NCBI GenBank assembly: GCA_963713285.1
Contig: CAVQLA010000014.1
Coordinates: 140,566-204,565, forward strand
Direction: 5' to 3'
Source of the DNA: an uncultured Chloroflexia bacterium
Lineage (GTDB): Bacteria; Chloroflexota; Limnocylindria; Limnocylindrales; CSP1-4
DNA length: 64,000 nucleotides
The number at the start of each line of letters is the position of its first letter. Position 1 is the stretch's first letter. The position numbers and the translations under genes are program-made. The notes beneath the pieces were generated by a model that was not told where the DNA came from, did no database searches, and saw only the letters and a program-made list of their open reading frames with translations. This document shows positions 1 to 26,207 of this stretch, piece by piece.

Positions 1-1020
1 GACACGGGACAGCACTGGGACGAGGCCATGGCCGGCACGTTCTTCGCCGAGCTCGGCCTCCCGCGGCCGGACCACACCCTGGGCGTCGGCGGGGGCGGGC
101 ACGCGGAGCAGACGGCCCGCATGCTGGTCGCCCTCGAGCCGGTCCTGCTGGCGGAGCGACCGGACGCGGTGCTCGTCTACGGCGACACGAACTCCACCCT
201 GGCCGGCGCGCTCGCGGGGGCCAAGCTCGGGATCCCCGTCGCTCACGTGGAAGCCGGCCTGCGCAGCTTCGACCGCCGCATGCCGGAGGAGATCAACCGG
301 GTCGTCGCCGACCATCTCGCGCGCTGGTGCTTCGCCCCGACGCCGGCGGCCGTGGCCAACCTCGCCGCCGAGGGGATCCGCGAGGGTGTCATCGAGGTCG
401 GCGACCTGATGCAGGATCTTGCCGCCCGGGTGAGCGCGGAGGTCCGCGAGGCGGCCGTCGCGGCAGCGATCGGGGAGGCGCTCGGCCTGGACCTGGCTCC
501 GGGCGCGTACCTCTTCGCCACGGTCCACCGGGCCGAGAACCGCGAGCCGGCGGCCCTGGCGGCCTGGGCGGCCCTCCTCGGTGACGCCGCCCGACCCGAC
601 CGACCCGTCGTCCTGGCGCTCCACCCGGGGACGGCGGCGGCCCTCGACGCCGCCGGCGTGGACCTGCCGCCCGACGTGCGGGTGGTCGCTCCCCAGGGCT
701 ACCGGACGACCCTGGCTCTCCAGCTTCACGCGGCGGCCGTCCTCACCGATTCGGGAGGGGTCCAGCGCGAGGCCGCGTGGCTCGGCGTGCCCTGCCTCGT
801 CCTCCGCGGGACCACCGAGTGGGTCGAGGCGGTCGCCGGGTCGGGGGGCCGGATGGTCGTGGTCGGCCTCGACCGCGCGCGGGCGGCGGCCGAGCTCGCG
901 CGCCTCGCGCCGGTGGACCGGGCCCCGGGGCTGGCGCGCGAGCGGGCCCGGGGGCTCGACCTGGCCCCGTCCGGCGCCGCCTTGGCGATCACCCGGGCGC
1001 TGGCGGAGCCGGCGGCGTGA
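1..1020 (+). CDS. wecB: UDP-N-acetylglucosamine 2-epimerase, non-hydrolysing (WecB/MnaA family); 5' end lies outside the window
   Basis: Frame-1 translation from nt 1 reads DTGQHWDEAMAGTFFAELGLPRPDHTLGVGGGGHAEQTARML...HVEAGLRSFDRRMPEEINRVVADHLA, the conserved Epimerase_2 core. There is no start codon in the window. Stop TGA at 1018-1020. Confidence 0.85.
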   Translation, partial: DTGQHWDEAMAGTFFAELGLPRPDHTLGVGGGGHAEQTARMLVALEPVLLAERPDAVLVYGDTNSTLAGALAGAKLGIPVAHVEAGLRSFDRRMPEEINRVVADHLARWCFAPTPAAVANLAAEGIREGVIEVGDLMQDLAARVSAEVREAAVAAAIGEALGLDLAPGAYLFATVHRAENREPAALAAWAALLGDAARPDRPVVLALHPGTAAALDAAGVDLPPDVRVVAPQGYRTTLALQLHAAAVLTDSGGVQREAAWLGVPCLVLRGTTEWVEAVAGSGGRMVVVGLDRARAAAELARLAPVDRAPGLARERARGLDLAPSGAALAITRALAEPAA

Positions 1021-2519
1021 CGGGCGCCGCGGCCGGGTCCGCGGGCACGTCCGCGTCGGCGGGCCCCGCGTCGGCGCCCCCCTCGTCTGCCGGCCCCTCG
1101 GCGGCGGGCGCGCCGGCGACGGGTGCTGCGCCGGTGCCGCAGCGCCTCACGCTCGTGCTGCCGTCCACGGCGGAGTTCGACTCCCGCACCTACCGGATCG
1201 CCAGCGCCGCGGCCGCCCGTGGCCACGCCGTCATGGTGCTCGCCCGCCGCAAGCCCGGGCTCCCGGCCGAGGAGCGGCACCCGGCCGGGTACACGATCCT
1301 CCGCGTGCCCTTCGCCGCGATCGACGGGCTGCCGATGCCGCGCCTGGTCTACGGGGCGCGGGTCGGCGTCCGGCGGCTCCACGCGTGGCGGACGGGCTCC
1401 CCGTACCGACCTCCGACGGCGCCCGGGCAGATCGCCGCCCCCGGGTCACCCGGGGTGGTCGCGGTGACCGCGGTGGCCGCGGCCCCGCCGGCAACCACGC
1501 CCGGCGTGCCCGGACGCCGCGCCTCGCTGCCTCGGCGGGCCGCCGCGGGTCTCGTGCGGCGCCTCGCGATCCCGCTCACGATCCGCTCCCAGGGCCGCTG
1601 GTCGCGCGCCGTGGCCCCGCCCGCCGACCTGTACCACGGCATGGCGTACATGGGGATCCCGATCGCCCTCGGGCTCGCGAAGCGTGACCGCGCGCGGGTC
1701 GTCTACGACGCGCGCGACATCTACCTGGACGCCGCGAACCTCGCCCGGATGACGGGCCCGATGCGGACCCTCCTCGCCCGCGCCGAGCGCGGCTGGGCAC
1801 GCGACGCCGATCGCGTCGTCACCGTCAACCGGCCGTACGCGGAGGTGATGGCCGACCGCTTCGGCGTGCCGCTCCCGCTCATCGTGCTCAACTGCAGCTA
1901 TCGCTTCGACCCGCCGGAGCCTCGGCCGAGACGCCTCCACGAGGCGCTCGGCCTCGAGGCGGCCACGCGAGTCGTCCTCTACCAGGGGGGCTTCAGTCGC
2001 GATCGCGGCATCGAGGAGCTCATCGCGGCGATCCCCTCCGTCCCCGGGGCAATCCTCGTGCTGCTGGGCTACGGCGTGCTCGAGGAGCAGCTGCGGGCCG
2101 CTGCGGCGGCCTCCCTCGGCCGCATCCACGTCCTGCCGGCGGTCGCCCCCACCGAGCTCCTCGCCTGGGTCGCCTCCGCCGACGTCGTCGCCATGCCCAT
2201 CCAGCCCACGACGCTCAACCATCGCCTGACCACGCCGAACAAGCTCTTCGAGGCCATGGCCGCCGGCGTGCCGGTCGTCGCCTCGGACCTGCCCGGGATG
2301 GCGCCGATCGTGCGCGAGACGGGATGCGGGGTCGTGTGCGACCCGACCGACCCGGCCGCGATCGCGGCGGCCCTCCGCGAGATCCTCTCCGCGTCGCCGG
2401 CCGACCTCGACGCCTATCGCCGCCGGGCGCTCGCGGCTGCGCACGGCTCCTACAGCTGGGAGACGCAGGTCGCGCTCCTCTTCGAGGAGTACGGCCGCCT
2501 GACGGGAAGGCCGTGGTGA
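1017..2519 (+). CDS. Glycosyltransferase, GT4 family (GT-B fold)
   Basis: C-terminal motifs: RVVLYQGGFSRDRGIEELIAA...TTPNKLFEAMAAGVPVVASDLPG. Candidate start is GTG 1017, overlapping the wecB stop (GTGA). The N-terminus is low-complexity, so the true start may lie further downstream. Confidence 0.7.
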   Translation: MTGAAAGSAGTSASAGPASAPPSSAGPSAAGAPATGAAPVPQRLTLVLPSTAEFDSRTYRIASAAAARGHAVMVLARRKPGLPAEERHPAGYTILRVPFAAIDGLPMPRLVYGARVGVRRLHAWRTGSPYRPPTAPGQIAAPGSPGVVAVTAVAAAPPATTPGVPGRRASLPRRAAAGLVRRLAIPLTIRSQGRWSRAVAPPADLYHGMAYMGIPIALGLAKRDRARVVYDARDIYLDAANLARMTGPMRTLLARAERGWARDADRVVTVNRPYAEVMADRFGVPLPLIVLNCSYRFDPPEPRPRRLHEALGLEAATRVVLYQGGFSRDRGIEELIAAIPSVPGAILVLLGYGVLEEQLRAAAAASLGRIHVLPAVAPTELLAWVASADVVAMPIQPTTLNHRLTTPNKLFEAMAAGVPVVASDLPGMAPIVRETGCGVVCDPTDPAAIAAALREILSASPADLDAYRRRALAAAHGSYSWETQVALLFEEYGRLTGRPW

Positions 2520-3880
2520 CGGCCCGCGCCCGTCCCCGCGCCGTGCTCCTCGTGGCCAACGCGGCCGCCCCGTACTCCCGCGGCCTGCGGGTCGCGCGAA
2601 GCCTGGCCGCGGCCGGCTACGACGTCGAGATCGCGGCGGTCGCCGAGGGAGACCACCCGCTGGAGGAGCGCGACGGGGCGGTGGTGGTGAGGCGCTACCG
2701 GCCTCGCGGGCCGTGGGTGCGCCGGGCCACTCCCCCGCCGGGTCCGGCACACGGCCTCCGCCGCTGGATCATCCGGGCCCACCGGGCGCTGGGGCGGGTC
2801 GTCCCGCCGCTCCGCCGGTTCCCTGCGCCGACGCCCGAGGCGATCGCCAAGATCGCCTGGTGGCCGGTCCACGTGCGCGGCTGGTGGGCGGCGCTCGATG
2901 CCGACCTGCCGCCGGCCGACCTGTACCACGCCTTCGGGATCCTGACGATCGACGTCGCGAACCGCCTCGCCGCCCGCGCTCGCGCCGAGGGGTTCGCCGG
3001 CCGGGTGGTGTACGACGTCATCGACGTGATCCTCGACTCCAACAACTACAGCAGCGTGCCGGCCCCCATCCTCGCCTGGTACCGCCGGCGCGAGCGGCGC
3101 TGGGTCGGCCGGGCCGACGCGATCGTCACGGTGAACGAGCCGATCGCCCAGCACCTCGAGCGGGCCTGGTCGCTGCGCACGCCGCCGACGGTGCTCCTCA
3201 ACTGCCAGCCCCGCTGGACGCCGCCGGAGCCGCGTCCCGACCACATCCGCGCCGCGACCGGGATCCCGCCGGAGCGGCGGATCGTCCTGTGGCTCGGCCG
3301 GCTGGGCCGCGAGCGCGGCCTGGACGAGGCGGCGGAGGCGGTCCTGCGGCTGGACGACGCCGCGCTCGTCATGCTCGGCTGGGGCCCCTGGGCCGACCAG
3401 CTGCGCGAGCGCGACCATGACCCGCGCTTCGCCGGGCACCACTTCACGCTGCCGCCCGTCCATCCCGACGAGGTCCCGGCCTGGACCGCGTCGGCCGACG
3501 TCTCGGTGATCGCCGTCCCCGCCAACTCGCTGAACCAGCGCCTCTCGACGCCGAACAAGTTCTGGGAGTCGCTGACCGCCGGCACCCCGATCGTGCTGGG
3601 GCGCGACCTGGAGGTGATGCGCGCGATCCTCGAGGCGGACGACCTCGGGCGCACCGCGGACCCCGGGGACCCGGACGACCTCGCCCGGGCCGTGCGGGAG
3701 ATCCTGGACCGCGAGCCGGAGGCCCGCGCGGCGATGCGAGGACGCTGTCTCCGCGTCAGCCGGGAGCGCTACAACTGGGAGACCGCGGTCATCCCGTACC
3801 TCGATCTCGTCGGCCGCCCGGACGGCGGCCCCCGGCGGGACGAGCTCCCGGCCGCCCCGGGTCCGCGTCTCAGCGCTTGA
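2516..3880 (+). CDS. Glycosyltransferase, GT4 family
   Basis: GTG 2516 overlaps the upstream stop (GTGA). Reads VTARARPRAVLLVANAAAPYSRG... Has the GT-B C-terminal motif STPNKFWESLTAGTPIV. Confidence 0.75.
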   Translation: MTARARPRAVLLVANAAAPYSRGLRVARSLAAAGYDVEIAAVAEGDHPLEERDGAVVVRRYRPRGPWVRRATPPPGPAHGLRRWIIRAHRALGRVVPPLRRFPAPTPEAIAKIAWWPVHVRGWWAALDADLPPADLYHAFGILTIDVANRLAARARAEGFAGRVVYDVIDVILDSNNYSSVPAPILAWYRRRERRWVGRADAIVTVNEPIAQHLERAWSLRTPPTVLLNCQPRWTPPEPRPDHIRAATGIPPERRIVLWLGRLGRERGLDEAAEAVLRLDDAALVMLGWGPWADQLRERDHDPRFAGHHFTLPPVHPDEVPAWTASADVSVIAVPANSLNQRLSTPNKFWESLTAGTPIVLGRDLEVMRAILEADDLGRTADPGDPDDLARAVREILDREPEARAAMRGRCLRVSRERYNWETAVIPYLDLVGRPDGGPRRDELPAAPGPRLSA

Positions 3881-4766
3881 TCGTCCCGCCGTAGCGCGCG
3901 ATCTGGGCGGCCTTCTCGGCGCGCTCCCGCGCCGAGTGCTCCTGGTGGATCGCGACGACGTCGGCGGGATCGCCCTCGGCGGCGATCCGCCCGTGCTCCA
4001 GCATGATCGCCCGGTTGCAGTACTCGGTGACCCACTGCATGTCGTGGGTGACGAGCACGATCGCCTTCGCCGACCGGACCAGCTCCAGCACCCGGGCCTT
4101 CGACTTCGCGCGGAAGACCTGGTCGCCCGTCGCGAGGACCTCGTCGAGCAGCAGCACGTCCGGGTCGACCGAGGTCGCGATCGAGAAGCCGAGCCTCGCC
4201 CGCATCCCCGACGAGTACGTCTTGATGGGGGCGTCGATGAACTCGCCGAGGTCGGCGAAGGCGACGATCGGCTCGAGGCGCTCCTCGACCTCGGCCTTCG
4301 TCATGCCCAGGAAGGCTCCGGCGAGCCGGACGTTCTCGCGCCCGGTCAGGTCCTGGTCGAAGCCAGCCCCCAGGGTCAGGAGGCTCGAGATGCGGCCGTG
4401 GACGAGGATCGAGCCCTCGGACGGCATCAGGATGCCCGCGAGCGCCTGCAGGAGGGTGCTCTTCCCCGCACCGTTGGGCCCGATGACCGCGAGCGACTCG
4501 CCGTTGGTGAGGCGGAACGAGACGTCCCGGAGCGCCCAGAACTCGCGGGCCCGCGAGCGGTCGCGCCGGGCGAAGTGGGCGAAGGTCTCGCGGAGGGTCG
4601 TCTTGCGGGTGAAGCGGAGGTTGTAGCGGATCCCGAGCCCGCCGACGTCGATCGCCGGCGATCCGCCGGCCGTCCACGGCGGAGCCGCGTCGTGGTCGTG
4701 GCGGGTGATCTCCCCGAGATCCCGCGCGTCCGCCGGTCCGACGCGCGGGGGTGCCGGCTGCGCCAT
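3870..4766 (-). CDS. wzt: ABC transporter ATP-binding protein of a polysaccharide/teichoic-acid exporter (Wzt/TagH/KpsT-like), 298 aa, no C-terminal carbohydrate-binding domain
   Basis: Walker A GPNGAGKST, ABC signature YSSGMRARLGFS, Walker B LLLDEVLATGD. The start ATG overlaps the stop of the upstream permease (ATGA). The long N-terminal extension in the ORF track is spurious. Confidence 0.85.
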   Translation of the reverse strand: MAQPAPPRVGPADARDLGEITRHDHDAAPPWTAGGSPAIDVGGLGIRYNLRFTRKTTLRETFAHFARRDRSRAREFWALRDVSFRLTNGESLAVIGPNGAGKSTLLQALAGILMPSEGSILVHGRISSLLTLGAGFDQDLTGRENVRLAGAFLGMTKAEVEERLEPIVAFADLGEFIDAPIKTYSSGMRARLGFSIATSVDPDVLLLDEVLATGDQVFRAKSKARVLELVRSAKAIVLVTHDMQWVTEYCNRAIMLEHGRIAAEGDPADVVAIHQEHSARERAEKAAQIARYGGTIKR

Positions 4767-5653
4767 CACAGCACCTTCGCGAACGACGGCTCGAGGCGCT
4801 TGAAGGTGGCGATGGCCACGAGCACCAGCCCGAGCGACACCACGAGCAGGGCGCCGAGCGCGGCCCAGTCCGGGAGGAGCGGCCCACCCTCCGGCGTCCC
4901 GTAGATCACGGCGCGATAGGCCTCGAACAGGATCGCGAACGGGTTGATCCTCAGCAGCGTGAGGATCACCGGGTACTGCTGGAGCAGGTCGCTCTCCTCG
5001 AGCAGCGCGATGGAGTAGAGGCCGGGAGAGAGGTAGAACCAGAGGCGCAGCGCATGCCGGGCGATGTTCCCCACGTCGCGCACGAACACGTTGAGGGCGG
5101 CCAGCACGAGCCCCAGGGCCAGGGTGAACACCAGCTGGACGACCGCGATGACCGGGATCAGGAGGAGCGTGAGGCTGAGGCGGTCGCGGTAGAGCAGGAG
5201 CAGGAGGCCCATGAGCGGGATCATCCCGAAGGCGAAGTTGACGACGCCGGCGAAGATGCCCGCCACGGGCAGCACGATCTTCGGGAACTGGAGCTGGCGG
5301 ATCAGGCTGCCCTGGCTCACGACCGAGGTGATCGAGTCGCCGACGCTGCTGGTGAACCACTTCCAGGGGAGGATCGCGGCGAAGATGAAGAGCGGGTAGT
5401 CCGGCTGCGGACGGGCGAAGATCACCGAGACGAGGATCACGTAGACGGCCATCTGCAGGAGGGGATCCAGCACCCACCAGACGTTGCCGAGCACCGTGTC
5501 GGCGCCCTTCTTGCGGAGGTCCGCCTGGACGAGGTAGCGGATCAGCTGCCGGCGCGAGAGGGCCTCGCGGATCCCTTCGACGACGAGTCCGGGGATGCCG
5601 GGCCGGATCGCCGAGTTCTGGACGGTGACGGGCTGCGCGGCGGGAGCGGACAT
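4766..5653 (-). CDS. wzm: ABC-2 type polysaccharide exporter permease (Wzm/TagG-like)
   Basis: 295 aa with six predicted TM helices and an ABC-2 permease architecture. Immediately upstream of, and coupled to, the ATPase gene. Confidence 0.8.
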   Translation of the reverse strand: MSAPAAQPVTVQNSAIRPGIPGLVVEGIREALSRRQLIRYLVQADLRKKGADTVLGNVWWVLDPLLQMAVYVILVSVIFARPQPDYPLFIFAAILPWKWFTSSVGDSITSVVSQGSLIRQLQFPKIVLPVAGIFAGVVNFAFGMIPLMGLLLLLYRDRLSLTLLLIPVIAVVQLVFTLALGLVLAALNVFVRDVGNIARHALRLWFYLSPGLYSIALLEESDLLQQYPVILTLLRINPFAILFEAYRAVIYGTPEGGPLLPDWAALGALLVVSLGLVLVAIATFKRLEPSFAKVL

Positions 5654-6234
5654 GGGCGGCGGAAGGGTAGCACAGGATCCCGGGCGCGCCGGGCCGGCCG
5701 CCTGGGTGGCCGTCCCGGCCCCGTGCCCCGCGCACCGGCCATCCTCGCCTTTGACCAGACTATCTACTCACCAGCGCCATCCTCCAGCACGGAGGTCACG
5801 CTGAAGTGCGGGTTCGCGTTGAGTCGCACGTTCAGGACTGGCGATCCTGACGAGACTATCTGTTCAGACCGCCACGAACTGCCACGCGAAGCCGGGCGCC
5901 GCCGCAGTCGACGACCCACCGGCCCGCTGCTCCGCCGGCGGCCACACCGCGCCAACGCGGACGGCCCACGGCCGCACCCGAGCGCCGCGCACCGGGGAGC
6001 CAGCCGCCGCCCACGACTCACGGCACTCCACGGCCACGCCGCGCCGCCGCCGAGCACCCCGGGCGACGCACGCGCGTCGCCACCGGGCGCCACCAGCAGC
6101 AGGCTCCACCGGTGCCGACCGCCAGGATCACGGAGCCGACGCGGTGACAGAGTCACGGAGCGTCACGAGGGGGCCGCCGGGGTAGCATTCGATCGATGCG
6201 TTCACGTGGCGCCGGCGGCGCCCGGCCGGTCTGC

Positions 6235-7422
6235 ATGATCACCCACTCCTACTACGAGGAGGATGCCCGCGTGCGGCGGGCCGCCGAGACCCTGGTCCTG
6301 GCCGGCCACCCCGTGGACGTCTTCGCGCTGCGGCGTCCGGGCGACTCGCCCGAGGCGATGCTCGAGGGTGTCCGGCTCCACCGGCTCGACGTGCGGCGCC
6401 ACCAGGGCGCCGGCATCGCGACCTACATGGCGGAGTACCTCGCGTTCCTGGTGCGGGCCACGTTCGCGGTCACGGCCAGCCACCGCCGGCGGCGGTATGG
6501 GCTCGTCCACGTGAACACGCTGCCGGACTTCCTCGCGTTCGCCGGCCTGCCGCTGCGCCTGGCTGCCGGCGTCCCGATCCTCCTGGACCTCCACGAGGCG
6601 ATGCCCGAGTTCTTCCGGGCGCGCTTCCCGGCGCGTGCCTCGCGGCTTGCCCACGAGGCGCTGCTGCTCCAGGAGCGCGCCTCGATCGCCATCGCCGCCG
6701 CGGTCGTGACGGTCAACGACGCGCTCGTCGAGCGCCTGGTGGAGCAGGGCGTGCAGCCGGCGAAGGTCACCGTGATCCTCAACGCCCCCGACCTCCGCCG
6801 GTTCGACCCTGCGGCGCACGCCACGCGCACCTTCGCGGAGGATGGCGTGCTGCGCCTCGTGTACGCCGGTGCGCTCACTCCCACGTACGAGCTCGACGTG
6901 GTCGTCGACGCCGTCGAGCTGCTCGGGCGCCTGCGCCCGGAGCTTCGGGTCACGCTCGACCTCTACGGGCGGGGCGACAGTGAGACCGCCCTCGGCGAGC
7001 GGGTGCGCGCCCACGGGCTCGCGGATCGCATCCGGCTCCACGGCCGCATCCCGCTGGAGGACGTGCCGGCCGCCATCGCGGCCGCCGACATCGGGCTGGC
7101 GCCCACCGCGCGCACCCCCTTCACGGACATGTCGCTCTCCACGAAGCTCTTCGAGTACGCGGCGATGGGCAAGCCGGTCATCGCCAGCTCCCTGCCGACC
7201 GTGGACCGGTACTTCCCGCAGGGGACCGTGGCTCACTACGCTCCGGGGGACCCCGAGGACCTGGCGCGGGCCATCCTGGCGCTGGTCGACGATCCGATCG
7301 CCCGCGAGGCCGGCCGGGCGGCGACGGGTCGGCGGGCCGCGGAGCTCTCGTGGGACGGGCAGGCGGCGCGCTACCTTGCGCTCGTCGAGCGTCTCTGTGC
7401 CGGCCGGGGGACGCGCCGGTGA
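6235..7422 (+). CDS. Glycosyltransferase, GT4 family
   Basis: MITHSYYEEDARVRRAAETLVLAGHPVDVF... with GT-B C-terminal motif TKLFEYAAMGKPVIASSLP. ATG at 6235; an in-frame upstream codon at 6196 is also possible. Divergent from wzm. Confidence 0.75.
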   Translation: MITHSYYEEDARVRRAAETLVLAGHPVDVFALRRPGDSPEAMLEGVRLHRLDVRRHQGAGIATYMAEYLAFLVRATFAVTASHRRRRYGLVHVNTLPDFLAFAGLPLRLAAGVPILLDLHEAMPEFFRARFPARASRLAHEALLLQERASIAIAAAVVTVNDALVERLVEQGVQPAKVTVILNAPDLRRFDPAAHATRTFAEDGVLRLVYAGALTPTYELDVVVDAVELLGRLRPELRVTLDLYGRGDSETALGERVRAHGLADRIRLHGRIPLEDVPAAIAAADIGLAPTARTPFTDMSLSTKLFEYAAMGKPVIASSLPTVDRYFPQGTVAHYAPGDPEDLARAILALVDDPIAREAGRAATGRRAAELSWDGQAARYLALVERLCAGRGTRR

Positions 7423-7612
7423 CCGGTCCCGGGGTGGGTCGCGACCGCCCGGCCTCCCGGGAAGGCGCGCGAGGCGGCAGAATGCGGGCTCGACCGGCAA
7501 CCGGTCGCCGGCCGGCCGGCGCGACGTCGTCCCCCGACGCGTCGGCCGCGGCGCCGCGCGGGACAGCACCGGCCGAGCGCCCGGGTTCGGGCGGCATGCC
7601 ACGGGAGGTCAG

Positions 7613-8929
7613 GTGATCCAGGAAGCATCGCCCGCGGATCGGCGCATCGCCGTCGTCGGGCTCGGGTATGTCGGTCTGCCGCTTGCCCTGGCGTTCGTCG
7701 AATCGGGCACCACCGTGGCCGGGCTCGACGCCAGCCCGAGCCGCGTGGCCGAGCTGGCCGCCGGGCACTCGCCGATCGAGGACGTCCCCGACGCGCGGCT
7801 GGCGGCGGCCCTCGCGGCCGGCTTCCGGCCGGTCGGGCCCGAGCCCTCCGAGATCGCCGCGGCGGACGCGGTCTTCGTCTGCGTCCCGACGCCCGTCACG
7901 GCCACCAAGGACCCCGACCTCGGGCCCGTGCTGGCGGCGGCGGAGCTCGTGCGGGCGGGGCTCCGGGCGGGGCAGCTGGTGGTCCTCCAGTCCACGACCT
8001 TCCCGGGCACGACCACGGGCGCCTTCCGCGCCGCCCTCGAGCGCGAGAGCGGGCTCGTCGCGGGCGTCGACTTCGACCTCGCCTTCGCCCCCGAGCGCGT
8101 CAACCCGGGCGACCCGGCCAGCTCCGGCAAGGCCGTGCCACGGCTGGTCGGCGGCCTCACGCCGCCCGCCACGACCCGCGCGGCCGCCCTGCTGCGCCGC
8201 ATCAACGACACCGTGGTCGAGCTCTCGTCGCCGGACGCCGCGGAGCTCGCGAAGCTCCACGAGAACGTGTTCCGGAACGTCAACATCGCCCTCGTCAACG
8301 AGCTCGCCCTCCTGTGCGAGCGGATGGGCCTCGACGTCTGGGAGATCATCGACGCGGCGGCCACGAAGCCGTTCGGGTTCATGAAGTTCACGCCCGGCCC
8401 CGGCGTCGGCGGCCACTGCATCCCCGTGGACCCGTACTACCTCGCGTGGCGTGCCCGCGAGTTCGACTTCAACGACCGCTTCGTCGAGCTCGCCGCCGAC
8501 GTCAACGTCGGCATGCCGCGCCACGTGGTCGACCTTGCCGCCGAGGCGCTCAACGACCGGGCACGCGCGCTGCGTGGCGCCCGGGTGGGGGTCGTCGGCG
8601 TGGCCTTCAAGCCCAACGTCGGCGACGCCCGCGAGTCGCCGGCTGCCGACGTCCTGGCCGGGCTGCGCGAGCGCGGCGCCGACGTCCGCTACCACGATCC
8701 GCACGTGGAGCGCTTCCGCGACGGCGCCGGCACCGAGAGCACGTCGGTGCCCCTCGCGGACCTGCTCGGCTGGGCCGAGATCGTCATCGTCGTGACCCCC
8801 CACGCCGCCGTGGACTGGGAGGCCGTCTACGGGCGGGCCGACCTCGTCCTCGACACCGTCAACTCCTCGCGCGGCCACCCGGTCCGCCCCCGCCAGGTCC
8901 TCCGCCTGGGTGCGGGGTGGAGCACCTGA
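7613..8929 (+). CDS. Nucleotide-sugar dehydrogenase (UDP-glucose/GDP-mannose dehydrogenase family; WecC/Cap5O-like UDP-ManNAc dehydrogenase is plausible)
   Basis: N-terminal Rossmann motif IAVVGLGYVGLPLALAF and catalytic-Cys motif GGHCIPVDP. GTG 7613 is preceded by GGGAGG. Confidence 0.85.
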   Translation: MIQEASPADRRIAVVGLGYVGLPLALAFVESGTTVAGLDASPSRVAELAAGHSPIEDVPDARLAAALAAGFRPVGPEPSEIAAADAVFVCVPTPVTATKDPDLGPVLAAAELVRAGLRAGQLVVLQSTTFPGTTTGAFRAALERESGLVAGVDFDLAFAPERVNPGDPASSGKAVPRLVGGLTPPATTRAAALLRRINDTVVELSSPDAAELAKLHENVFRNVNIALVNELALLCERMGLDVWEIIDAAATKPFGFMKFTPGPGVGGHCIPVDPYYLAWRAREFDFNDRFVELAADVNVGMPRHVVDLAAEALNDRARALRGARVGVVGVAFKPNVGDARESPAADVLAGLRERGADVRYHDPHVERFRDGAGTESTSVPLADLLGWAEIVIVVTPHAAVDWEAVYGRADLVLDTVNSSRGHPVRPRQVLRLGAGWST

Positions 8930-10950: not shown

Positions 10951-12710
10951 CCCTGCCGGTGCTCTTCCTGGTCCCGGCGCGCGGCGGCAGTGTCCGCGTC
11001 CCGGGGAAGAACCTGCGATCGGTGGCGGGCATCCCCCTCGTGGCGCACGGCGTGCGGATCGCGCGGGCGGCAGCGGCCCGAACCCCGGGCGGTCCCCACG
11101 CGGTGGCCTGCAGCACGGACGACCCCGCCATCGCGGCCGTCGCCCGCGCGTGGCATGCGGAGATCCCCTTCGAGCGCCCGGCCGCGCTCGCCGGGCCCGA
11201 CGCGTCGTCGGTCGACGTGGCCCTCCACGCCCTGGAGACCCTCGCGGCCCGCGGGCGCCGGTTCCGCGCCATCGTGCTCGTCCAGCCGACCTCACCCCTC
11301 GCCGATCCCGGCGATATCGCCGCGGCGGTCGCCGCGCTCGACGCCGACGGGGCGCCCGTCACGAGCGTCGTCGCCGCTCACCCGGTGGCCTGGCACGTCG
11401 CGCTCGACGCGGACCGGCGCCTGCGCCCGGTCGACGGAGATGCCCGCCACCTCCTGGCGGGGGCCTTCTACGCCATCACGCCCGGGGAGCTGGCGACGGC
11501 CCGGGCCTTCGTCGTTCCCGGCCGGACGCGCGGGCTGGAGGTGGCGGCCGCGACGGCGGTCGACATCGACACGGAGAACGACCTCGCCGTCGCCCGGGCG
11601 CTCGCGGCCTCGCGCCCCGTGCCGCCCGTCGCACTGGCGGGCCGCTCGATCGGGGATGGCCCCTGCTTCGTGATCGCCGAGGGCGGCGTCAACCACGACG
11701 GCGACCCGGCGCGCGCCCACCGGCTCGTCGACGCGGCGGCCGACGCGGCGGCCGACGCCGTGAAGTTCCAGGCGTTCGACCCGGCGCTCCTCGCCGCGGC
11801 CGGCGCCCCGCTGGCCGACTACCAGCGGGCGGCGGGCGAGACCGGGGCCGACCAGCGGGCGATGCTGGCCCGGCTCGCGCTTCCCGCCGGGGCGTGGCCC
11901 GGCCTCCGCGACCACGCCCACGACCGCGGCCTCGTCTTCCTGGCGAGCCCCTTCGACGAGCCGTCGGCGGACCTCCTGGAGGCGCTCGGGATCCCGGCGT
12001 TCAAGGTTGGCTCGGGCGAGCTCACGAACCTCCCGTTCCTCGAGCGGCTGGCGGGCGTCGGGCGGCCGCTCCTCGTCTCCACGGGGATGGCCACGCTGGT
12101 CGAGGTGGCCGATGCCCTCGACGCGATCGCGGGCAGCGGCGACCCGCCGGTGGCGCTTCTCCACTGCGTCTCCGCCTACCCGGCCGACCCGGCGGAGGCG
12201 AACCTCCGCGCGATCGCCACGTTGCGCGCCGCCTTCGGCCGCCCGTCCGGCTGGTCCGACCACACCCCAGGGATCGAGCTGCCCACGGCGGCGGCGGCCC
12301 TGGGCGCCGACCTCCTCGAGAAGCACCTGACGCTCGATCGGTCGCTGCCGGGTCCGGACCACCGGGCGTCGCTCGAGCCGGCCGAGATGACGGCCCTCGT
12401 CCGGGCCGTGCGCACCGTCGAGGTGGCCCGGGGCGACGGCGAGAAGGCGCCGTCCGCGGCGGAGCTGGCCGTGGCGGCGGTGGCCCGCAAGAGCCTCCAC
12501 TGGGCCCGGGCCCTCGCGGCCGGGGCCGCGGTCACGCCGGCCGACCTCGTCGCCCAGCGACCCGGGACGGGGCTGCCGCCCGGCGAGCGCGACCTCGTGA
12601 TCGGGCGCCGCACGAGGCGGCCCGTGCCGGCCGGCAGCCTCGTGACGCTCGCCGACGTCGAGGGCGACGTCGGGGCCGGCGTCGGGGCCGGCGGGGAGCC
12701 GCCCGCATGA
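10947..12710 (+). CDS. Bifunctional fusion: N-terminal CMP-nonulosonate cytidylyltransferase (NeuA/LegF-like) and C-terminal nonulosonate synthase (NeuB/LegI-like, PEP-dependent, with SAF domain)
   Basis: N-terminus LFLVPARGGSVRVPGKNL matches the CTP_transf_3 family. The C-terminal half has FVIAEGGVNHDGD...ADAVKFQAFD, FKVGSGELTNLPFLE and SDHTPGIELP (NeuB motifs), plus a SAF-like tail. ATGA overlap with the upstream gene. Confidence 0.85.
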   Translation: MTLPVLFLVPARGGSVRVPGKNLRSVAGIPLVAHGVRIARAAAARTPGGPHAVACSTDDPAIAAVARAWHAEIPFERPAALAGPDASSVDVALHALETLAARGRRFRAIVLVQPTSPLADPGDIAAAVAALDADGAPVTSVVAAHPVAWHVALDADRRLRPVDGDARHLLAGAFYAITPGELATARAFVVPGRTRGLEVAAATAVDIDTENDLAVARALAASRPVPPVALAGRSIGDGPCFVIAEGGVNHDGDPARAHRLVDAAADAAADAVKFQAFDPALLAAAGAPLADYQRAAGETGADQRAMLARLALPAGAWPGLRDHAHDRGLVFLASPFDEPSADLLEALGIPAFKVGSGELTNLPFLERLAGVGRPLLVSTGMATLVEVADALDAIAGSGDPPVALLHCVSAYPADPAEANLRAIATLRAAFGRPSGWSDHTPGIELPTAAAALGADLLEKHLTLDRSLPGPDHRASLEPAEMTALVRAVRTVEVARGDGEKAPSAAELAVAAVARKSLHWARALAAGAAVTPADLVAQRPGTGLPPGERDLVIGRRTRRPVPAGSLVTLADVEGDVGAGVGAGGEPPA

Positions 12711-13867
12711 CGCGCCGGGTCGCCGTTCTCACGACCGGCCGCCAGGACTGGGGCCTCCTGCGCTCCACGTGCGTGGCGCTCCGCGACGCGCACGGCGCCG
12801 AGGTCCTGGTGCTGGCCGGGGGGATGCACCTGAGCGGGCGCCACGGCAGGCCGATCGCGGCGGTGCGCGAGGACGGCTTCGAGCCGGCGGCGGAGATGCC
12901 CTGGCTGGGCGTCGACGCCGCCGCGGACCCCCCGGCCCACCGCCAGGCGGGCGCGGCGCTGGTGGCCGTGGGCGACGCGCTCGCCCGCCTGGACCCCGAT
13001 GCGCTCGTCGTCGCCGGGGATCGCCTCGAGACGGCCGCCGCCGCGCTGGCCGCGACCGTGGGACGCGTCCCCCTCGTCCATCTCCACGGCGGCGAGCAGA
13101 CGGGCGGCGCCTTCGACGACGCCCTGCGCCACGCGATCACGAAGCTGGCCCACCTCCACCTCGTCAGCCACGCCGAGCACGCCCGCCGCGTGATCGCCCT
13201 GGGCGAGGATCCCGCGACGGTGCACGTGATCGGACCCCCCGGGGTCGACGCCCTGGCGCGCCCGGACCTCCCCGGCCGAGCGGAGCTGGAGGCCGACCTC
13301 GGGATCGCCCTCGCGCCCCCGCTGGTCGTCGTCACCGTGCACCCGGCGACGCTCGACGCGGACCCCGCCGCGGTCGCTGCCCCGGTCGTGGCGGCGATGG
13401 GCGCCGTCGCGGCGACCTATGTCGTCACCCTGCCCAACAGCGATCCCGGCGGCGACGCGATCCGGGCTGCGCTCCTGGCGCACGCCGCCGGGCGCCCCGG
13501 CACGGTCGCCGTCGTCCCGGCGCTCGGCGAGCGTCGCTACTGGGGCCTCCTGCGCCTCGCCGACGCGATGCTCGGCAACAGCTCGAGCGCGATCGTCGAG
13601 GCGCCGGCGGTCGACCTCCCCGCGGTCGACGTCGGGGACCGCCAGGAGGGCCGCCGCCGGGAGGCCAACGTCATCCACGCCCTGTCCGACCCGGACGCCG
13701 TGGAGCGCGCCCTTCGCCGGGCGCTCGAGCCCGGGTACCGGGCGGCCGTCCGCGCTGCCCGCCCGCCCCTCGCCGACGGCCGGGCCGGCGAGCGTGCCGC
13801 CCGTATCATCGCGGCATGGCAGCCCTCCCGACCGCCGCGCAAGGCGCCCATCCCGGTGGACGGGTGA
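12707..13867 (+). CDS. Hydrolysing UDP/GDP-N-acetylglucosamine 2-epimerase (NeuC/LegG-like)
   Basis: MTRRVAVLTTGRQDWG...HLHGGEQTGGAFDDALRHAITKLAHLHL, the Epimerase_2 hydrolysing subtype. ATGA overlap with the upstream gene. Confidence 0.85.
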   Translation: MTRRVAVLTTGRQDWGLLRSTCVALRDAHGAEVLVLAGGMHLSGRHGRPIAAVREDGFEPAAEMPWLGVDAAADPPAHRQAGAALVAVGDALARLDPDALVVAGDRLETAAAALAATVGRVPLVHLHGGEQTGGAFDDALRHAITKLAHLHLVSHAEHARRVIALGEDPATVHVIGPPGVDALARPDLPGRAELEADLGIALAPPLVVVTVHPATLDADPAAVAAPVVAAMGAVAATYVVTLPNSDPGGDAIRAALLAHAAGRPGTVAVVPALGERRYWGLLRLADAMLGNSSSAIVEAPAVDLPAVDVGDRQEGRRREANVIHALSDPDAVERALRRALEPGYRAAVRAARPPLADGRAGERAARIIAAWQPSRPPRKAPIPVDG

Positions 13868-14529
13868 TGCCGCGGCGGCTGGTGGTCCTGGGCGGGGGCG
13901 AGCACGCCCGGGTCGTCGTCGACGCGGCGCGGTCCGCCGTCCCCGGCTGGGATGTCGTCGGGATCGTCGATCCGGGAGCCGCGGAGCGCACGCGGACGCT
14001 CCTCGCGGTCGAGCACCTGGGCGACGACGCGGCGTTCGCCGCCGCGCTGGACGGGATGCGGCCGGCCGAGCGACCGCACCTCGTGCTGGGGCTGGGCGCG
14101 ATGGGCGATCCCGCGGCGCGCCGTGCCCTGGTCGCCCGCTACGAGGGCCGCGCGCCGTGGGCCACGCTCGTCCACGGGGCCGCCTGGGTCGCCCCGTCGG
14201 CCACCCTCGGGCCGGGCGCCGTCATCCTCGCGGGTGCCGTGGTCAACGCGGGCGCCGACGTCGGCGACCACGCTGTCGTCAACAGCGGCGCGATCCTCGA
14301 GCACGACGCGGTCCTCGGCGCGTTCGCCCAGCTGGCGCCGGGCGCGGTCGTCGGCGGCGCCGCGGTCGTCGAGGCGGACGCCTACGTCGCGATCGGCGCG
14401 CTCGTGCGCGACCACGTGACCGTGGGCCGCGGCGCGGTGGTGGGAATGGGCGCGGCCGTCGTGGCCGACGTGCCGGAGGATGCGGTCGTCGTCGGCGTCC
14501 CGGCCCGGCGCCGAGAGGCGTCCCGGTGA
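13867..14529 (+). CDS. Hexapeptide-repeat sugar N/O-acetyltransferase (NeuD/LegH/PglD-like)
   Basis: N-terminal Rossmann-like LVVLGGGEHARVVVD, followed by left-handed beta-helix hexapeptide repeats (GAVVNAGADVGDHAVVNSGAILEHD...). ATG overlaps the NeuC stop. Confidence 0.8.
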   Translation: MPRRLVVLGGGEHARVVVDAARSAVPGWDVVGIVDPGAAERTRTLLAVEHLGDDAAFAAALDGMRPAERPHLVLGLGAMGDPAARRALVARYEGRAPWATLVHGAAWVAPSATLGPGAVILAGAVVNAGADVGDHAVVNSGAILEHDAVLGAFAQLAPGAVVGGAAVVEADAYVAIGALVRDHVTVGRGAVVGMGAAVVADVPEDAVVVGVPARRREASR

Positions 14530-15569
14530 GCGACCGGATCAGCCCGGCCCTCGTGCCCGTCGAGGGCTCACTCCGCGATGCCATGCGGGCGCTCGACGTG
14601 GGCGCCCTGCGCATCGCCCTCGTCGTCGACGGGGAGGGGCGGCTCGTCGGCGTGACCACCGACGGCGACGTCCGCCGCGCGCTCCTCTCCGGCGTCCGCC
14701 TCGACGATCCCCTCGGCCCGCACGTGACGCGCGCGTTCACGGCCGTCACGCCGCGCGACGGCCGGGCCGACGTGATCGACCTGATGCGGGCCCGGCACAT
14801 CGGGGCCGTCCCGGTCCTCGACGACGCCGGCCGGCCGGTGGCGCTCCACCTCCTGGACGAGGCCCTGGCCCCGGCGGAGCGCACGACCTGGGCGGTGGTG
14901 ATGGCCGGCGGCCGGGGCGTCCGCCTCCGTCCCCTCACCGAGAACGTCCCCAAGCCGATGCTGCGCGTCGCCGGGCGGCCGATCCTCGAGCGGATCGTCC
15001 TGCACCTCGTCGGTCACGGCATCACCCGGATCCACCTCGCCATCGGCTACCTCGGGGACAGGATCGAGGAGCACTTCGCGGACGGCAGCCGCTTCGGGGC
15101 CCGGATCTCGTACCTCCGCGAGGACGAGCCGCTGGGCACCGGCGGCGCCCTCGGCCTCCTGCCCGAGCTGCCCCGCGAGCCGCTCCTCGTGATGAACGGC
15201 GACCTCGTCACCCAGGCCGACCTGGGCGCCCTGCTCGACGTCCACGCCGCGCGGGGAGACGTCGCGACGATCGGCGTCCGGCGCTACGTCCACGCCGTCC
15301 CGTTCGGCTGCGTCGAGCGCGCCGGGGACCGCATCGTCGGGCTCGAGGAGAAGCCGACGCTCACGCGCGACGTGAACACCGGCATCTACGCCCTGGCGCC
15401 CGGGCTCGTCGCGCGGGTCGAGCGCGGGCGGCCGGTCGGGATGCCCGACCTCATCGGCGATGCCCTCGCGCGCGGCGAGCCCGTGGGCGCCTTCGAGATC
15501 GAGGACGACTGGATCGACGTCGGGCAGCGCGAGCAGCTCGACCGCGCCCGCGGAGGTGGCGACGCATGA
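14526..15569 (+). CDS. CBS-domain sugar-phosphate nucleotidyltransferase (PtmE-like, putative GlcN/GlcNAc-1-P guanylyltransferase)
   Basis: Tandem CBS pair (LRIALVVDGEGRLVGVTTDGDVRRAL...) followed by an NTP_transferase core WAVVMAGGRGVRLRPLTENVPKPML. GTG overlaps the upstream stop. Confidence 0.8.
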   Translation: MSDRISPALVPVEGSLRDAMRALDVGALRIALVVDGEGRLVGVTTDGDVRRALLSGVRLDDPLGPHVTRAFTAVTPRDGRADVIDLMRARHIGAVPVLDDAGRPVALHLLDEALAPAERTTWAVVMAGGRGVRLRPLTENVPKPMLRVAGRPILERIVLHLVGHGITRIHLAIGYLGDRIEEHFADGSRFGARISYLREDEPLGTGGALGLLPELPREPLLVMNGDLVTQADLGALLDVHAARGDVATIGVRRYVHAVPFGCVERAGDRIVGLEEKPTLTRDVNTGIYALAPGLVARVERGRPVGMPDLIGDALARGEPVGAFEIEDDWIDVGQREQLDRARGGGDA

Positions 15570-16559
15570 CCCTGCGCGACGTGCCCGTGCTCGTCACCGG
15601 CGCGGACGGCTTCATCGGCAGCCACCTCGTGGAGCGCCTTGTCGCGGAGGGCGCCCGCGTGCGGGCGTTCTGCCTCTACACGTCCCGCGGGAGCTGGGGC
15701 TGGCTCGACGAGGCCCCGCCGGACGTGCGCGCCGCGCTCGACGTGCGGCTCGGGGACGTCCGCGACGCCCGCTTCGTCGCCGAGGCGACGGACGGCGTCG
15801 AGGTGGTCTTCCACCTCGCGGCGCTCATCGCGATCCCGTACTCGTACACGGCGCCCGAATCGTTCGTCGACACGAACGTTCGCGGCACCCTCAACGTCCT
15901 CGAGGCGGCCCGAAGGACGGCGGTCCGGCGCGTGATCGTCACGAGCACCAGCGAGGTCTACGGCACGCCGGAGATCCTCCCGATCACCGAGGCCCACCCG
16001 CTCAACGCGCAGTCCCCGTACGCGGCGACCAAGGTGGCGGCCGACCAGCTGGCGCTTGCCTACCACCGCAGCTACGGGGTGCCGGCCGTCATCCTCCGGC
16101 CGTTCAACACGTACGGCCCGCGCCAGTCCGCGCGGGCCGTCCTGCCCACGATGCTCCGCCAGCTGCTCGCCGGCCGGACCCAGGTGCGCCTGGGCCGCCT
16201 GGATCCGCGCCGCGACCTCACGTACGTCGCCGACACCGTGGACGGGTTCGTCCGCGCGGCGACGGCGGCAGGGATCGACGGCGCGACGATCCAGCTCGGG
16301 ACGGGCGGCACCGAGTCGATCGCGGAGCTGTTCGCGCGTGCCTGCCGCCTGCTCGGCGTCGACGCGGTCGCGGTCGAGGATGCCGGGCGCCTGCGGCCCG
16401 ACGCCAGCGAGGTCCTGGCCCTGCAAGTCGGACCCGTCCCGGGCCCGGGAGCTGCTCGGCTGGACGGCGACGACCAGCCTGGACGCGGGCCTCCGGGAGA
16501 CCATCGCCTGGCTCCGCGCCCACCCCGAGCCCGGCGACGTCGACCGTGTCCAGCTCTGA
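15566..16559 (+). CDS. NAD-dependent sugar nucleotide 4,6-dehydratase/epimerase (LegB-like SDR), apparent +1 frameshift near nt 16430
   Basis: MTLRDVPVLVTGADGFIGSHLV..., YxxxK in PYAATKVAAD. The reading frame switches after EVLALQ to continue DPSRARELLGWTATTSLDAGLRETIAWLRAHPE and ends at 16559. ATGA overlap with the upstream gene, GGAGG RBS. Confidence 0.7.
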
Positions 16560-17703
16560 CGCTCGCCGGCGGATCCCGCTCGCGGAGCCGACGCTGGGGG
16601 GCAACGCCGAGCGCTACCTGCGCGAGTGCCTCGCCACGAACTTCGTCTCTTCGGTGGGGCCGTTCGTCGAGCGTTTCGAGCGCGAGTTCGCCGCCGCCGT
16701 CGGCAGCCGCCACGCCGTCGCGTGCTCCTCGGGCACGGCCGCCCTCCACCTGGCGATGCGGGTCCTCGACGTCGGGCCCGGCGACGAGGTCTTCGTCCCG
16801 ACCCTGACCTTCGTCGCCTCCGCCAACCCGATCCGCTACGAACGCGCGACCCCGGTCCTCGTCGACGTCGAGGAGGAGACCCTCAACCTGGACCCCGGCA
16901 TCGTCGCCGACGAGCTCGCCCGCCGGGCTCGCCTGGGCCTGCGGCAGCCCAGGGCGATCGAGGTCGTCCACCTCGTGGGCCACCCCGCGGACATCGTCCC
17001 GCTCCTCGATGCCGCCGCGCGCCACGGGGTGCCGGTCATCGAGGACGCCTCCGAGGCGCTCGGGGCGACGTACCGGGGCGGGAGCCTCGACGGGCGCTCC
17101 GTGGGCACGCTGGGGCGCGTCGGCTGTTTCAGCTTCAACGGCAACAAGATCATCACCACCGGCGGCGGGGGGATGGTGACGACCGACGACGAGGCCCTCG
17201 CCCGGCGCGCGCGCCACCTCTCGACGCAGGCCCGGCTTCCCGGCCGGGCGTACGACCACGACGAGGTCGGGTACAACTACCGGCTCACCAACCTCGCCGC
17301 GGCCCTCGGGGTGGCGCAGCTCGAGCTGCTCCCCGACCTCCTCGCCGCCCGGCGGGCCGTGGCCTCCCGCTACGACACGGCGCTCGCGGCGGCGCCCCTC
17401 CTGCGCCCCGCTCCGCGGGCGCCGTGGGCCGATCCCAGCTTCTGGCTCTACACCGCCCGGCTGGCGGCACCCGACGCCGCGGTGCGCGACCGGGTGCTGG
17501 ATGCCCTCGCGGCCCGCGCCATCGACGCCCGGCCGATCTGGACGCCGATCCACGCCCTGGCGCCGTACGCGGATGCGCCGCGCCTCGGCGGCGCGGTCGC
17601 CGAGCGGATCTTCGCCGCGGCGCTCAGCCTGCCCTCGTCCTCGTCGCTCGCCCCTGCCGACCAGGACCGCGTGGTGGAGGCGCTGCGCGTCGCGCTCGCC
17701 TGA
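16546..17703 (+). CDS. DegT/DnrJ/EryC1/StrS-family PLP-dependent sugar aminotransferase (LegC/PseC-like)
   Basis: IPLAEPTLGGNAERYLRECLATNFVSSVGPFVERFE..., with the PLP-lysine region FSFNGNKIITTGGGGMV. Confidence 0.85.
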   Translation: MSSSDARRRIPLAEPTLGGNAERYLRECLATNFVSSVGPFVERFEREFAAAVGSRHAVACSSGTAALHLAMRVLDVGPGDEVFVPTLTFVASANPIRYERATPVLVDVEEETLNLDPGIVADELARRARLGLRQPRAIEVVHLVGHPADIVPLLDAAARHGVPVIEDASEALGATYRGGSLDGRSVGTLGRVGCFSFNGNKIITTGGGGMVTTDDEALARRARHLSTQARLPGRAYDHDEVGYNYRLTNLAAALGVAQLELLPDLLAARRAVASRYDTALAAAPLLRPAPRAPWADPSFWLYTARLAAPDAAVRDRVLDALAARAIDARPIWTPIHALAPYADAPRLGGAVAERIFAAALSLPSSSSLAPADQDRVVEALRVALA

Positions 17704-19584: not shown

Positions 19585-19596
19585 GCGGAGCAGGGC

Positions 19597-25364: not shown

Positions 25365-25365
25365 G

Positions 25366-25746: not shown

Positions 25747-25758
25747 CGTTCCGCCCCC

Positions 25759-26193: not shown

Positions 26194-26207
26194 GGTGTCC
26201 TCCGGGC

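Follow-up and report, generated by a model that had tools for sequence, protein, structure and literature searches.

The first 17,703 nucleotides of a 64,000-nucleotide stretch of contig CAVQLA010000014.1 (hereafter the window), from an uncultured bacterium of the Chloroflexota, probably represent the right-hand part, truncated by the window edge, of a conserved surface-glycan export locus of Limnocylindria-like Chloroflexota. As a gene cluster it is unremarkable, belonging to a well-known class but in a little-known lineage, with legionaminic acid (Leg) predicted to be made by a known route. What goes beyond the routine is the eighth of its coding regions, G8, which belongs to a sizeable unclassified family of GT-B-fold proteins. 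The transferases of Leg and pseudaminic acid (Pse) are poorly known, and G8 is a concrete candidate for such an enzyme.

An initial annotation made from the sequence alone had described a glycan locus with an ABC-2 exporter. Its reading of assembly in the cytoplasm stood up to the present analysis, as did its nonulosonic acid (NulO) module and its assignment of a Wzt protein that lacks a carbohydrate-binding module (CBM), but its count of transcription units, the completeness of the pathway, the WecB and TagF-like labels, and the nature of the host had to be revised, as described below.

Organization and conservation of the locus

The window has a GC content of ~76% and holds long spurious open reading frames (ORFs) in all frames; given this composition we called genes from third-position GC content (GC3) and the codon-position pattern, and scanned Pfam and NCBIfam for their identities. 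Fourteen coding regions (G1-G14) were found within positions 1-17703, and the gene list and positions given earlier were borne out, the scans supporting each component that had been named.

Two divergent transcription units had been proposed, but we found three: G1-G3 on the plus strand, G5-G4 on the minus strand, and G6-G14 on the plus strand. The first of these is convergent with G4, the 3' ends of G3 and G4 overlapping by 11 bp. From G7 through G14 every start overlaps the preceding stop by 4-14 bp, an arrangement that indicates translational coupling of these genes. The right boundary of the cluster is exact, as position 17703 is the last base of the stop codon of G14, while the left edge, position 1, is only the limit of the window, and in relatives the cluster extends further upstream.

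Directly to the right of the cluster, at 17851-22225, lies a housekeeping block encoding a SurA/PrsA-like peptidyl-prolyl isomerase (PPIase) with one N-terminal hydrophobic segment, MazG, RNase PH and RdgB. This block is kept as the right flank in the related loci L016, L029, L001, L035, L026 and L078, which argues that the glycan locus occupies a fixed chromosomal site across Limnocylindria, with a Leg or Pse cassette that varies. A comparison of synteny with relatives, as suggested in the initial annotation, found the gene order conserved: L016, the closest relative, shares the entire order, with protein identities of 75-93% and the PPIase and MazG flank included, and the order is the same in L029, L001 and L086. 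The host had been said to look otherwise Gram-positive; judged by its homologs, however, it is one of the Limnocylindria-like Chloroflexota and no classical Gram-positive bacterium. The class Limnocylindria is known only from metagenome-assembled genomes (MAGs) (PMC10608941).

The nonulosonic acid module

G9-G14, all on the plus strand, form the NulO module. G9 (10947-12710), whose start overlaps the G8 stop (ATGA), encodes a 587-aa fusion of an N-terminal, LegF-like CMP-NulO synthetase with a NulO synthase (LegI/NeuB plus SAF). The Pfam domain CTP_transf_3 matches residues 7-136 (48.5 bits), the PseF model residues 8-218, and NeuB residues 260-500 (268.8 bits), followed by SAF; the cytidylyltransferase part was assigned to residues 8-218 and the NeuB plus SAF part to residues 240-572. 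G10 (12707-13867) encodes a hydrolyzing 2-epimerase of the NeuC/LegG type (TIGR03568 NeuC_NnaA, 325 bits; cutoff 235.9), and G11 (13816-14529, with an alternative start at 13864/13867) a LegH-like N-acetyltransferase of the NeuD/PglD type (TIGR03570, 175 bits; cutoff 160.8; Pfam PglD_N and Hexapep). In G12 (14526-15569) a CBS pair is joined to a PtmE-like sugar-1-phosphate nucleotidyltransferase (Pfam CBS; NTP_transferase, 1.5e-32). G13 (15566-16559) encodes a LegB-type 4,6-dehydratase (TIGR04180), the frame of which is broken at 16425, and G14 (16546-17703) a LegC-type aminotransferase dependent on pyridoxal phosphate (Pfam DegT_DnrJ_EryC1, 1.5e-102), which scored 398 bits with the LegC model TIGR04181 (cutoff 420) and 253 bits with the PseC model.

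For G13 and G14 the LegB and LegC models were the top models by far, with the Pse models scoring much lower. A CBS-nucleotidyltransferase marks the GDP-GlcNAc route of the CMP-legionaminic acid pathway. By these assignments the module is probably of the legionaminic acid type, with a predicted complement of seven functions (PtmE-like, LegB, LegC, LegH, LegG, and the fused LegF-LegI).

The earlier account of this module was incomplete in that it had missed a frameshift in LegB. The coding signal of G13 fades near 16400, yet the frame stays open to 16807, and the conserved C-terminus SDPSRARELLGWTATTSLDAGLRETIAWL (also written SDPSRARELLGW...) lies in a different frame, with its stop at 16559. 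The cause is a 1-base insertion at 16425, where the window reads CTGCAAGTCGG and L016 reads CTGC-AGTCGG. As read, G13 scored 397 bits with TIGR04180 over profile positions 1-279 of 297; with base 16425 removed it is a protein of 330 aa that scored 412 bits (cutoff 475) over positions 1-295 of 297.

Were the frameshift real, the locus would be as described but its legionaminic acid branch would be dead here, and the polymer would be free of NulO, if it were made at all. The insertion does take away 44 conserved C-terminal residues of LegB, and the protein is intact, at 330 aa, in the closest relatives, L016 and L086. On the other hand, the other genes of the module are intact with strong codon bias (GC3 0.93-0.97) and no decay was seen among them, a second gene 8 kb away also appears to change frame near its end, and split genes are abundant in related long-read MAG contigs. 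For these reasons we consider an indel introduced by assembly to be the probable cause by a good margin, and a dead branch to be unlikely.

The second gene (22311-24463, plus strand), which lies 4.6 kb 3' of the cluster, encodes a membrane protein that combines acyltransferase-3 and SGNH-type parts and is related to the mycobacterial arabinogalactan succinyltransferase SucT (243 bits, under the cutoff); this product could acylate the glycan. The gene runs on without an in-frame stop to 25451, and a plausible C-terminus, LGDALTILVAQR followed by a stop, is encoded in a different frame, pointing to a second 1-base indel near 24440.

G8, a candidate nonulosonic acid transferase

G8 (8917-10950, plus strand; 677 aa) is the sole non-GT4 transferase in the cluster, where it lies between the dehydrogenase and CMP-Leg synthetase genes and is translationally coupled to both. 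Its sequence had no match in Pfam, NCBIfam or the PDB. When profiles were searched against PDB sequences, that of the close family gave chance matches only, a distant relative gave nothing, and a wider family profile gave one marginal match, to the CapG epimerase (5e-4). An AlphaFold2 model built with 31 homologs was of high quality (pLDDT 88.7, pTM 0.88), and a Foldseek search of the PDB with this model returned GT-B proteins only, with E values from 5e-9 to 1e-6, among them UDP-GlcNAc 2-epimerases, TarL, TagF and GT4 enzymes.

Residues invariant in the family are E374, Q395-H396-G397, K537-x-H539-P540, D582-x-H584 and S589-T590; the HP motif, K537-x-H539-P540, is located in the C-terminal Rossmann domain and is present in all 31 close homologs and in 32 of 32 sequences of a wider alignment. 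An exhaustive profile search collected 288 clusters (at 50% identity) at E <= 1e-30 and 1,616 at E <= 1e-10, and 36 word-sharing homologs were found among 5.8 billion proteins. Relatives numbered 136 in 185,579 species genomes, nearly all of them MAGs of Candidatus Limnocylindria/Limnocylindrales or Chloroflexota/Chloroflexia.

We reasoned about the donor from genomic context, using the 48 G8 loci that extend for 8 kb or more to each side and defining the neighborhood as 10 kb. A NulO synthase was the commonest neighbor of G8, found in 42 of the 48 loci; 15 were of the Leg type and 26 of the Pse type, with L058 confirmed as Pse-type by the PseC and PseI models. The association reaches beyond the lineage: distant relatives (19-29% identity) on unrelated metagenome contigs of 47% GC adjoin PtmE/LegB/LegC in L081, a set resembling that for Pse in L082, and NeuB with a cytidylyltransferase in L084, and on these contigs they lie beside Wzx flippases.

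The G8 tree also follows the type of NulO. In neighbor-joining trees of the same 32 loci the Leg/Pse label changed 3 times for G8 and 9 times for the dehydrogenase (~10 at random), and in other same-locus contrasts it changed 3 times for G8 against 6 for one of the GT4 genes (GT4c), and 2 times for G8 against 4 for Wzt. The nearest tree neighbor was of the same NulO type for 97-100% of G8 sequences, compared with 72-78% for the controls. Given the adjacency to NulO genes, its recurrence on the low-GC contigs and the tree that follows Leg/Pse type, we judge it somewhat more probable than the contrary that G8 is a nonulosonic acid transferase. To the broader proposal, that G8 defines a new glycosyltransferase family of dedicated CMP-legionaminic/pseudaminic acid transferases serving ABC-exported polymers in Limnocylindria and Wzx/Wzy repeat units in unrelated bacteria, we assign roughly even chances.

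The earlier label of G8 as TagF-like was fair at the level of the superfamily, the predicted GT-B fold of G8 being only a distant relation of that of TagF, but not at that of the TagF family, as Pfam PF04464 was unmatched and CDP-glycerol supply genes were not found. If G8 were nevertheless a true polyol-phosphate transferase of the TagF/TarL type, the product would be a teichoic acid-like polymer with a ManNAc-type linkage unit and a TagGH-like pump, and Leg would be transferred by another enzyme or belong to another glycoconjugate. There is evidence consistent with this proposal. In the Foldseek search TarL (1.1e-8) and TagF (1.3e-7) were among the matches, the distant relatives P0160 (32.7 bits) and P0177 (28.7 bits) exceed the PF04464 gathering score of 22.1, and one homolog bears the NCBI name 'CDP-glycerol glycerophosphotransferase family protein'; moreover, TagH is among the best NCBIfam models of the exporter, and some G8 loci lack NulO genes. 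However, G8 itself did not match PF04464 even at E = 1, and the fold scores of UDP-GlcNAc 2-epimerases and GT4 enzymes were equally good. A tblastn search of the window and 85 loci (1.49 Mb of DNA flanking G8) found no TagD-like and one TarI-like gene (in L068), and a TagA/GT26 gene is absent. Finally, the association and co-evolution of G8 with NulO type are strong, and the cluster has no other candidate for a CMP-NulO transferase. We therefore regard the TagF/TarL proposal as quite unlikely. Within the family the Pfam matches were diffuse: PF04464 matched 3 of the 31 close homologs weakly, and matches to Glyphos_transf, Capsule_synth, Epimerase_2, DUF6365 and DUF6716 were scattered among members below threshold.

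Several observations do weigh against NulO transfer by G8 and against the legionaminic acid locus as we read it. The structural neighbors of G8 are generic GT-B proteins, TarL and TagF among them, with low TM-scores on the query (0.30-0.38), and the PF04464 threshold is exceeded by two distant relatives, as noted. The D/E-D/E-G motif of sialyltransferases is partial, in that E374 is invariant but its flanks vary as [N/H/D]-E-[Y/G], with N-E-Y in G8. NulO genes are absent within 10 kb of G8 in five complete loci (L019, L026, L028, L062 and L078), in which either the NulO genes lie elsewhere or another donor is used. The co-evolution could reflect co-transfer of adjacent genes as a cassette, and not substrate specificity. 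In Bacillus subtilis SpsB, a TagB-like protein encoded beside Leg genes, was dispensable for the transfer of Leg (PMC7439481). As for the module, G13 and G14 score under the NCBIfam equivalog cutoffs for LegB and LegC, and since they fall just short of these curated values a stereoisomer or derivative of Leg is a possible product; and with LegB frameshifted in this sequence, the strain may no longer be able to make Leg.

Some of the loci that lack NulO genes (L019, L026, L028 and L078) are compact. L028, situated between MetRS and purine genes, consists of a dehydrogenase, a GT4, a GT2-GT1 fusion, G8, a methyltransferase and a GT2. In L026 and L078 the PPIase gene directly follows the G8 homolog.

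One apparent fusion of a G8-like protein with a CMP-NulO synthetase, P0313, was rejected as a frameshift read-through (163 G8-like residues, an Arg/Pro-rich out-of-frame stretch, and CTP_transf_3). Many genes are fragmented in L086, L087, L024 and L077, and together with P0313 these cases caution that related long-read MAG data often contain indel errors.

Sugar supply, glycosyltransferases and export

G1 (1-1020, plus strand) encodes a non-hydrolyzing NDP-sugar 2-epimerase of the WecB/WbpI type (Pfam Epimerase_2, 2.7e-84). It scored 220 bits with the wecB model TIGR00236 (cutoff 210), and because the profile was matched only from position 36 the 5' end of the gene must have been removed by the window edge; its homologs are 369-373 aa in length, and many carry the JGI label 'UDP-GlcNAc3NAcA epimerase'. 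G7 (7397-8929, plus strand, starting at 7397 or more likely at 7613) encodes a nucleotide-sugar 6-dehydrogenase with three UDPG_MGDP_dh domains (TIGR03026, 384 bits; cutoff 190). It is closest to UDP-ManNAc dehydrogenases, for which two models scored 236 and 220 bits, both under their cutoffs.

In L016, L029, L070, L027 and L086 a second nucleotide-sugar dehydrogenase gene, the product of which is 36% identical to G7, lies directly 5' of the G1 homolog. In L087 genes for a hexapeptide acetyltransferase, a DegT aminotransferase, a GFO_IDH_MocA oxidoreductase and a dehydrogenase precede, in that order, the epimerase gene, which is the G1 homolog of this locus (89% identity). WbpD, WbpE, WbpB, WbpA and WbpI constitute the route to UDP-ManNAc3NAcA known from Pseudomonas and Bordetella, and by family the upstream genes of L087 correspond to the gene set of this route. 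Judged from relatives only, in which WbpD/E/B/A-like genes stand directly upstream, G1 is probably WbpI-like instead of a plain WecB. The polymer had been expected to contain ManNAc/ManNAcA and a nonulosonic acid; the module for the latter is indeed present, but ManNAc3NAcA is likelier than plain ManNAc or ManNAcA, given that the G1 homolog follows WbpD/E/B/A-like genes in relatives.

All of the components needed to assemble and export the polymer had been thought to be present. However, genes for a priming transferase of the WecA/TagO or WbaP type, a LytR-CpsA-Psr (LCP) protein, a ligase or an oligosaccharyltransferase were not found in the 64-kb window, nor were they found in the 10 kb upstream in the close relative L087. 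The lack of a priming enzyme and a ligase in this DNA is a further point counting against our reading of the locus; wecA is often encoded elsewhere in a genome, and the priming transferase may be so here.

This same result bears on whether the glycan is linked to the cell wall. Proteins might be its acceptors instead, making it an S-layer glycan or a general O-glycan of the kind found in Tannerella and Paenibacillus. Alternatively, a glycolipid could serve as its primer, in which case G8 would initiate the chain with an ulosonic acid in the manner of KpsS/KpsC. Consistent with such proposals, neither an LCP ligase nor a PNPT/PHPT priming enzyme was found in the window or the upstream 10 kb of the relative, several relatives of G8 match Capsule_synth (KpsS/KpsC) weakly, and in the Tannerella precedent the glycan is O-linked to protein (PMC5420450). 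Yet the window likewise yielded no oligosaccharyltransferase or Wzy_C/O-antigen ligase gene, and the Capsule_synth matches are far under threshold. Since the distant relatives of G8 are found in Wzx/Wzy-type repeat-unit loci, an ordinary in-chain transferase fits better than a primer-building one, and we gave a KpsS/KpsC-like priming role low weight. Overall, a glycan that is not wall-linked strikes us as improbable, though less so than the teichoic acid-like polymer.

Three GT4 glycosyltransferases are encoded on the plus strand: G2 (1017-2519; 500 aa; Pfam Glyco_trans_1_4, 6.8e-23, and Glycos_transf_1, 1.5e-19), the start of which overlaps the G1 stop; G3 (2513-3880; 455 aa; Glycos_transf_1, 6.2e-14); and G6 (6196-7422; 408 aa; Glyco_trans_4_4, 4.7e-21, and Glyco_trans_1_4, 1.2e-20). 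The concern had been raised that they might prove to be pseudogenes, but each is an intact single ORF of uniform GC3 (0.94-0.96 overall, with 0.95 over the entire ORF of G2 and 0.96 in G3), and none is therefore a pseudogene.

The exporter genes are on the minus strand among the GT4 genes. G4 (3870-4766) encodes a Wzt/TagH-like ABC ATPase (Pfam ABC_tran, 1.5e-21), for which the top NCBIfam models were the galactan exporter ATPase Wzt/RfbE (193 bits) and TagH (190 bits), both under their cutoffs. As had been proposed, it lacks a C-terminal carbohydrate-binding module: the protein is only 298 aa in length and the Wzt_C model was unmatched, so that it belongs to the CBM-less subtype. G5 (4766-5653) encodes a Wzm-like ABC-2 permease of 295 aa (Pfam ABC2_membrane, 31.7 bits; cutoff 26.9) with five hydrophobic segments in a hydropathy scan and weak NCBIfam matches to Wzm/RfbD and KpsM. 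The pair is present in 24 of the 48 complete related loci. No Wzx flippase, Wzy polymerase or synthase is encoded within 1-17703, where all coding regions were assigned to other families.

The divergent spacer between G5 and G6 (5654-6195) had been described as an AT-richer promoter region at 5.65-6.23 kb. It carries no coding signal, and it is AT-richer only in its core, 5750-5900 (61% GC), which contains two copies of GAC[CG]AGACTATCT, at 5753 and 5849, 96 bp apart; this motif was found in none of the related loci searched. Scans of the spacer for the sigma-70 consensus and for terminators gave nothing, and an Rfam scan of 1-24000 found no RNA family. A segment of ~500 bp (5674-6173) is absent from L016, which has 14 bp in its place, and could be a lineage-specific regulatory insert or the remnant of a mobile element. 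Near-identical 11-mers, CAGGATCCCGG and CAGGATCACGG, occur at 5673 and 6123.

Neighboring genes and base composition

Further to the right, a succinate dehydrogenase/fumarate reductase operon (24531-27896, minus strand; flavoprotein, two membrane subunits and iron-sulfur subunit) is convergent with the acyltransferase gene. A 2852-aa protein encoded at 33080-41638 on the minus strand combines GH94 supersandwich and catalytic domains with a glucoamylase-like domain; cyclic beta-1,2-glucan synthases have this architecture, and the gene may thus represent another envelope or periplasmic glycan system. Measured per 2 kb, the GC fraction of the glycan cluster is 0.76-0.79 (0.70 in the bin with the exporter and spacer), compared with 0.69-0.74 at 24000-64000. 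Horizontally acquired polysaccharide loci are usually low in GC, the opposite of this GC-rich cluster.

Proposed pathway and comparison with known systems

The analysis establishes the gene identities, the synteny, the frameshift, the class of fold of G8, and the linkage and co-evolution of G8 with NulO genes; from the gene families we infer a pathway, together with the donor and acceptor of G8, the structure of the polymer and its anchoring. In this pathway a lipid carrier would bear the chain during its assembly on the cytoplasmic side of the membrane. The three GT4 enzymes would add UDP-activated sugars, including an N-acetylated mannuronic acid-type sugar supplied by G1 and G7, to which in relatives a WbpD/E/B/A-like upstream set would also contribute. 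Starting from GDP-GlcNAc or another NDP-GlcNAc, G9-G14 would produce CMP-legionaminic acid through PtmE-like activation, dehydration by LegB, amination by LegC, acetylation by LegH and hydrolyzing epimerization by LegG, after which the fused LegF-LegI would carry out the condensation and the activation with CMP. The divergent GT-B enzyme G8, in which a His-Pro motif is invariant, would then most likely move legionaminic acid from CMP-Leg to the growing chain, possibly to a uronic acid residue, and the Wzm/Wzt transporter, which has no CBM, would export the finished acidic polymer.

Limnocylindria is a widespread uncultured class, and the locus offers a first genomic sketch of its envelope chemistry, in the form of a predicted exported acidic glycan with a uronic acid and a sialic acid-like sugar. 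If the proposal is correct, an abundant class of uncultured soil and freshwater bacteria would be coated with a sialic acid-like acidic polymer, and a long-missing transferase would be named for many Leg/Pse-containing polysaccharides. Enzymes that transfer legionaminic acid are, to our knowledge, almost unknown, and the G8 family provides a testable candidate that could be useful for glycoengineering and for annotating many loci of surface polysaccharides.

The locus resembles other ABC-dependent systems in which Wzt has no CBM (Klebsiella O2a type, TagGH, and the mycobacterial galactan Wzm/Wzt) in its ABC-2 permease, short nucleotide-binding domain, cluster rich in glycosyltransferases, and lack of Wzx/Wzy. 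It differs in that the host is a member of the Chloroflexota with an uncharacterized envelope, and in that genes for priming and ligation were not found in the DNA searched. The block in the relatives holds the five families of the WbpA-B-E-D-I route of Pseudomonas aeruginosa and Bordetella, with the G1 homolog last, whereas the window holds only this last gene, the specificity of which is deduced from gene order. The module is predicted to share all seven functions of the CMP-legionaminic acid pathway of Campylobacter jejuni (PtmE, LegB, LegC, LegH, LegG, LegI and LegF), the CBS-nucleotidyltransferase included. Here, however, LegF and LegI are fused (587 aa), LegB and LegC fall just short of their cutoffs, and LegB is frameshifted; and while the product in C. 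jejuni goes to flagellin, here it would go to a polymer.

With respect to G8, the CDP-polyol phosphotransferases TagF, TarL and TagB (PF04464; PDB 3L7I and 8VA1) have the GT-B fold that is predicted for G8 (Foldseek E 1e-8 to 1e-7) and, like G8, belong to loci with an ABC-2 exporter. The TagF family has conserved histidines in its N- and C-terminal halves, as does G8. In contrast to these enzymes, G8 fails PF04464 and is linked to CMP-NulO synthesis, with no CDP-glycerol or CDP-ribitol genes nearby.

A close precedent is provided by Tannerella forsythia, in which gene knock-outs implicate the TagB-like proteins Tanf_01245 and TFUB4_00887 in transfer of a Pse derivative and a Leg derivative, respectively; these enzymes have an HP motif, their genes lie beside CMP-NulO genes, and their acceptor is ManNAcA (PMC5420450). 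They share with G8 the GT-B/TagB superfamily, the HP motif, neighboring CMP-Pse/CMP-Leg genes, and the existence of Pse- and Leg-associated variants, and the locus in the window is likewise predicted to make a ManNAcA-type uronic acid. They differ from G8 in length (442-445 aa against 677 aa), G8 carrying helical insertions and, at its N-terminus, an additional alpha/beta domain, in serving protein O-glycosylation in a diderm, and in the D/E-D/E-G motif, at which G8 has N-E-Y.

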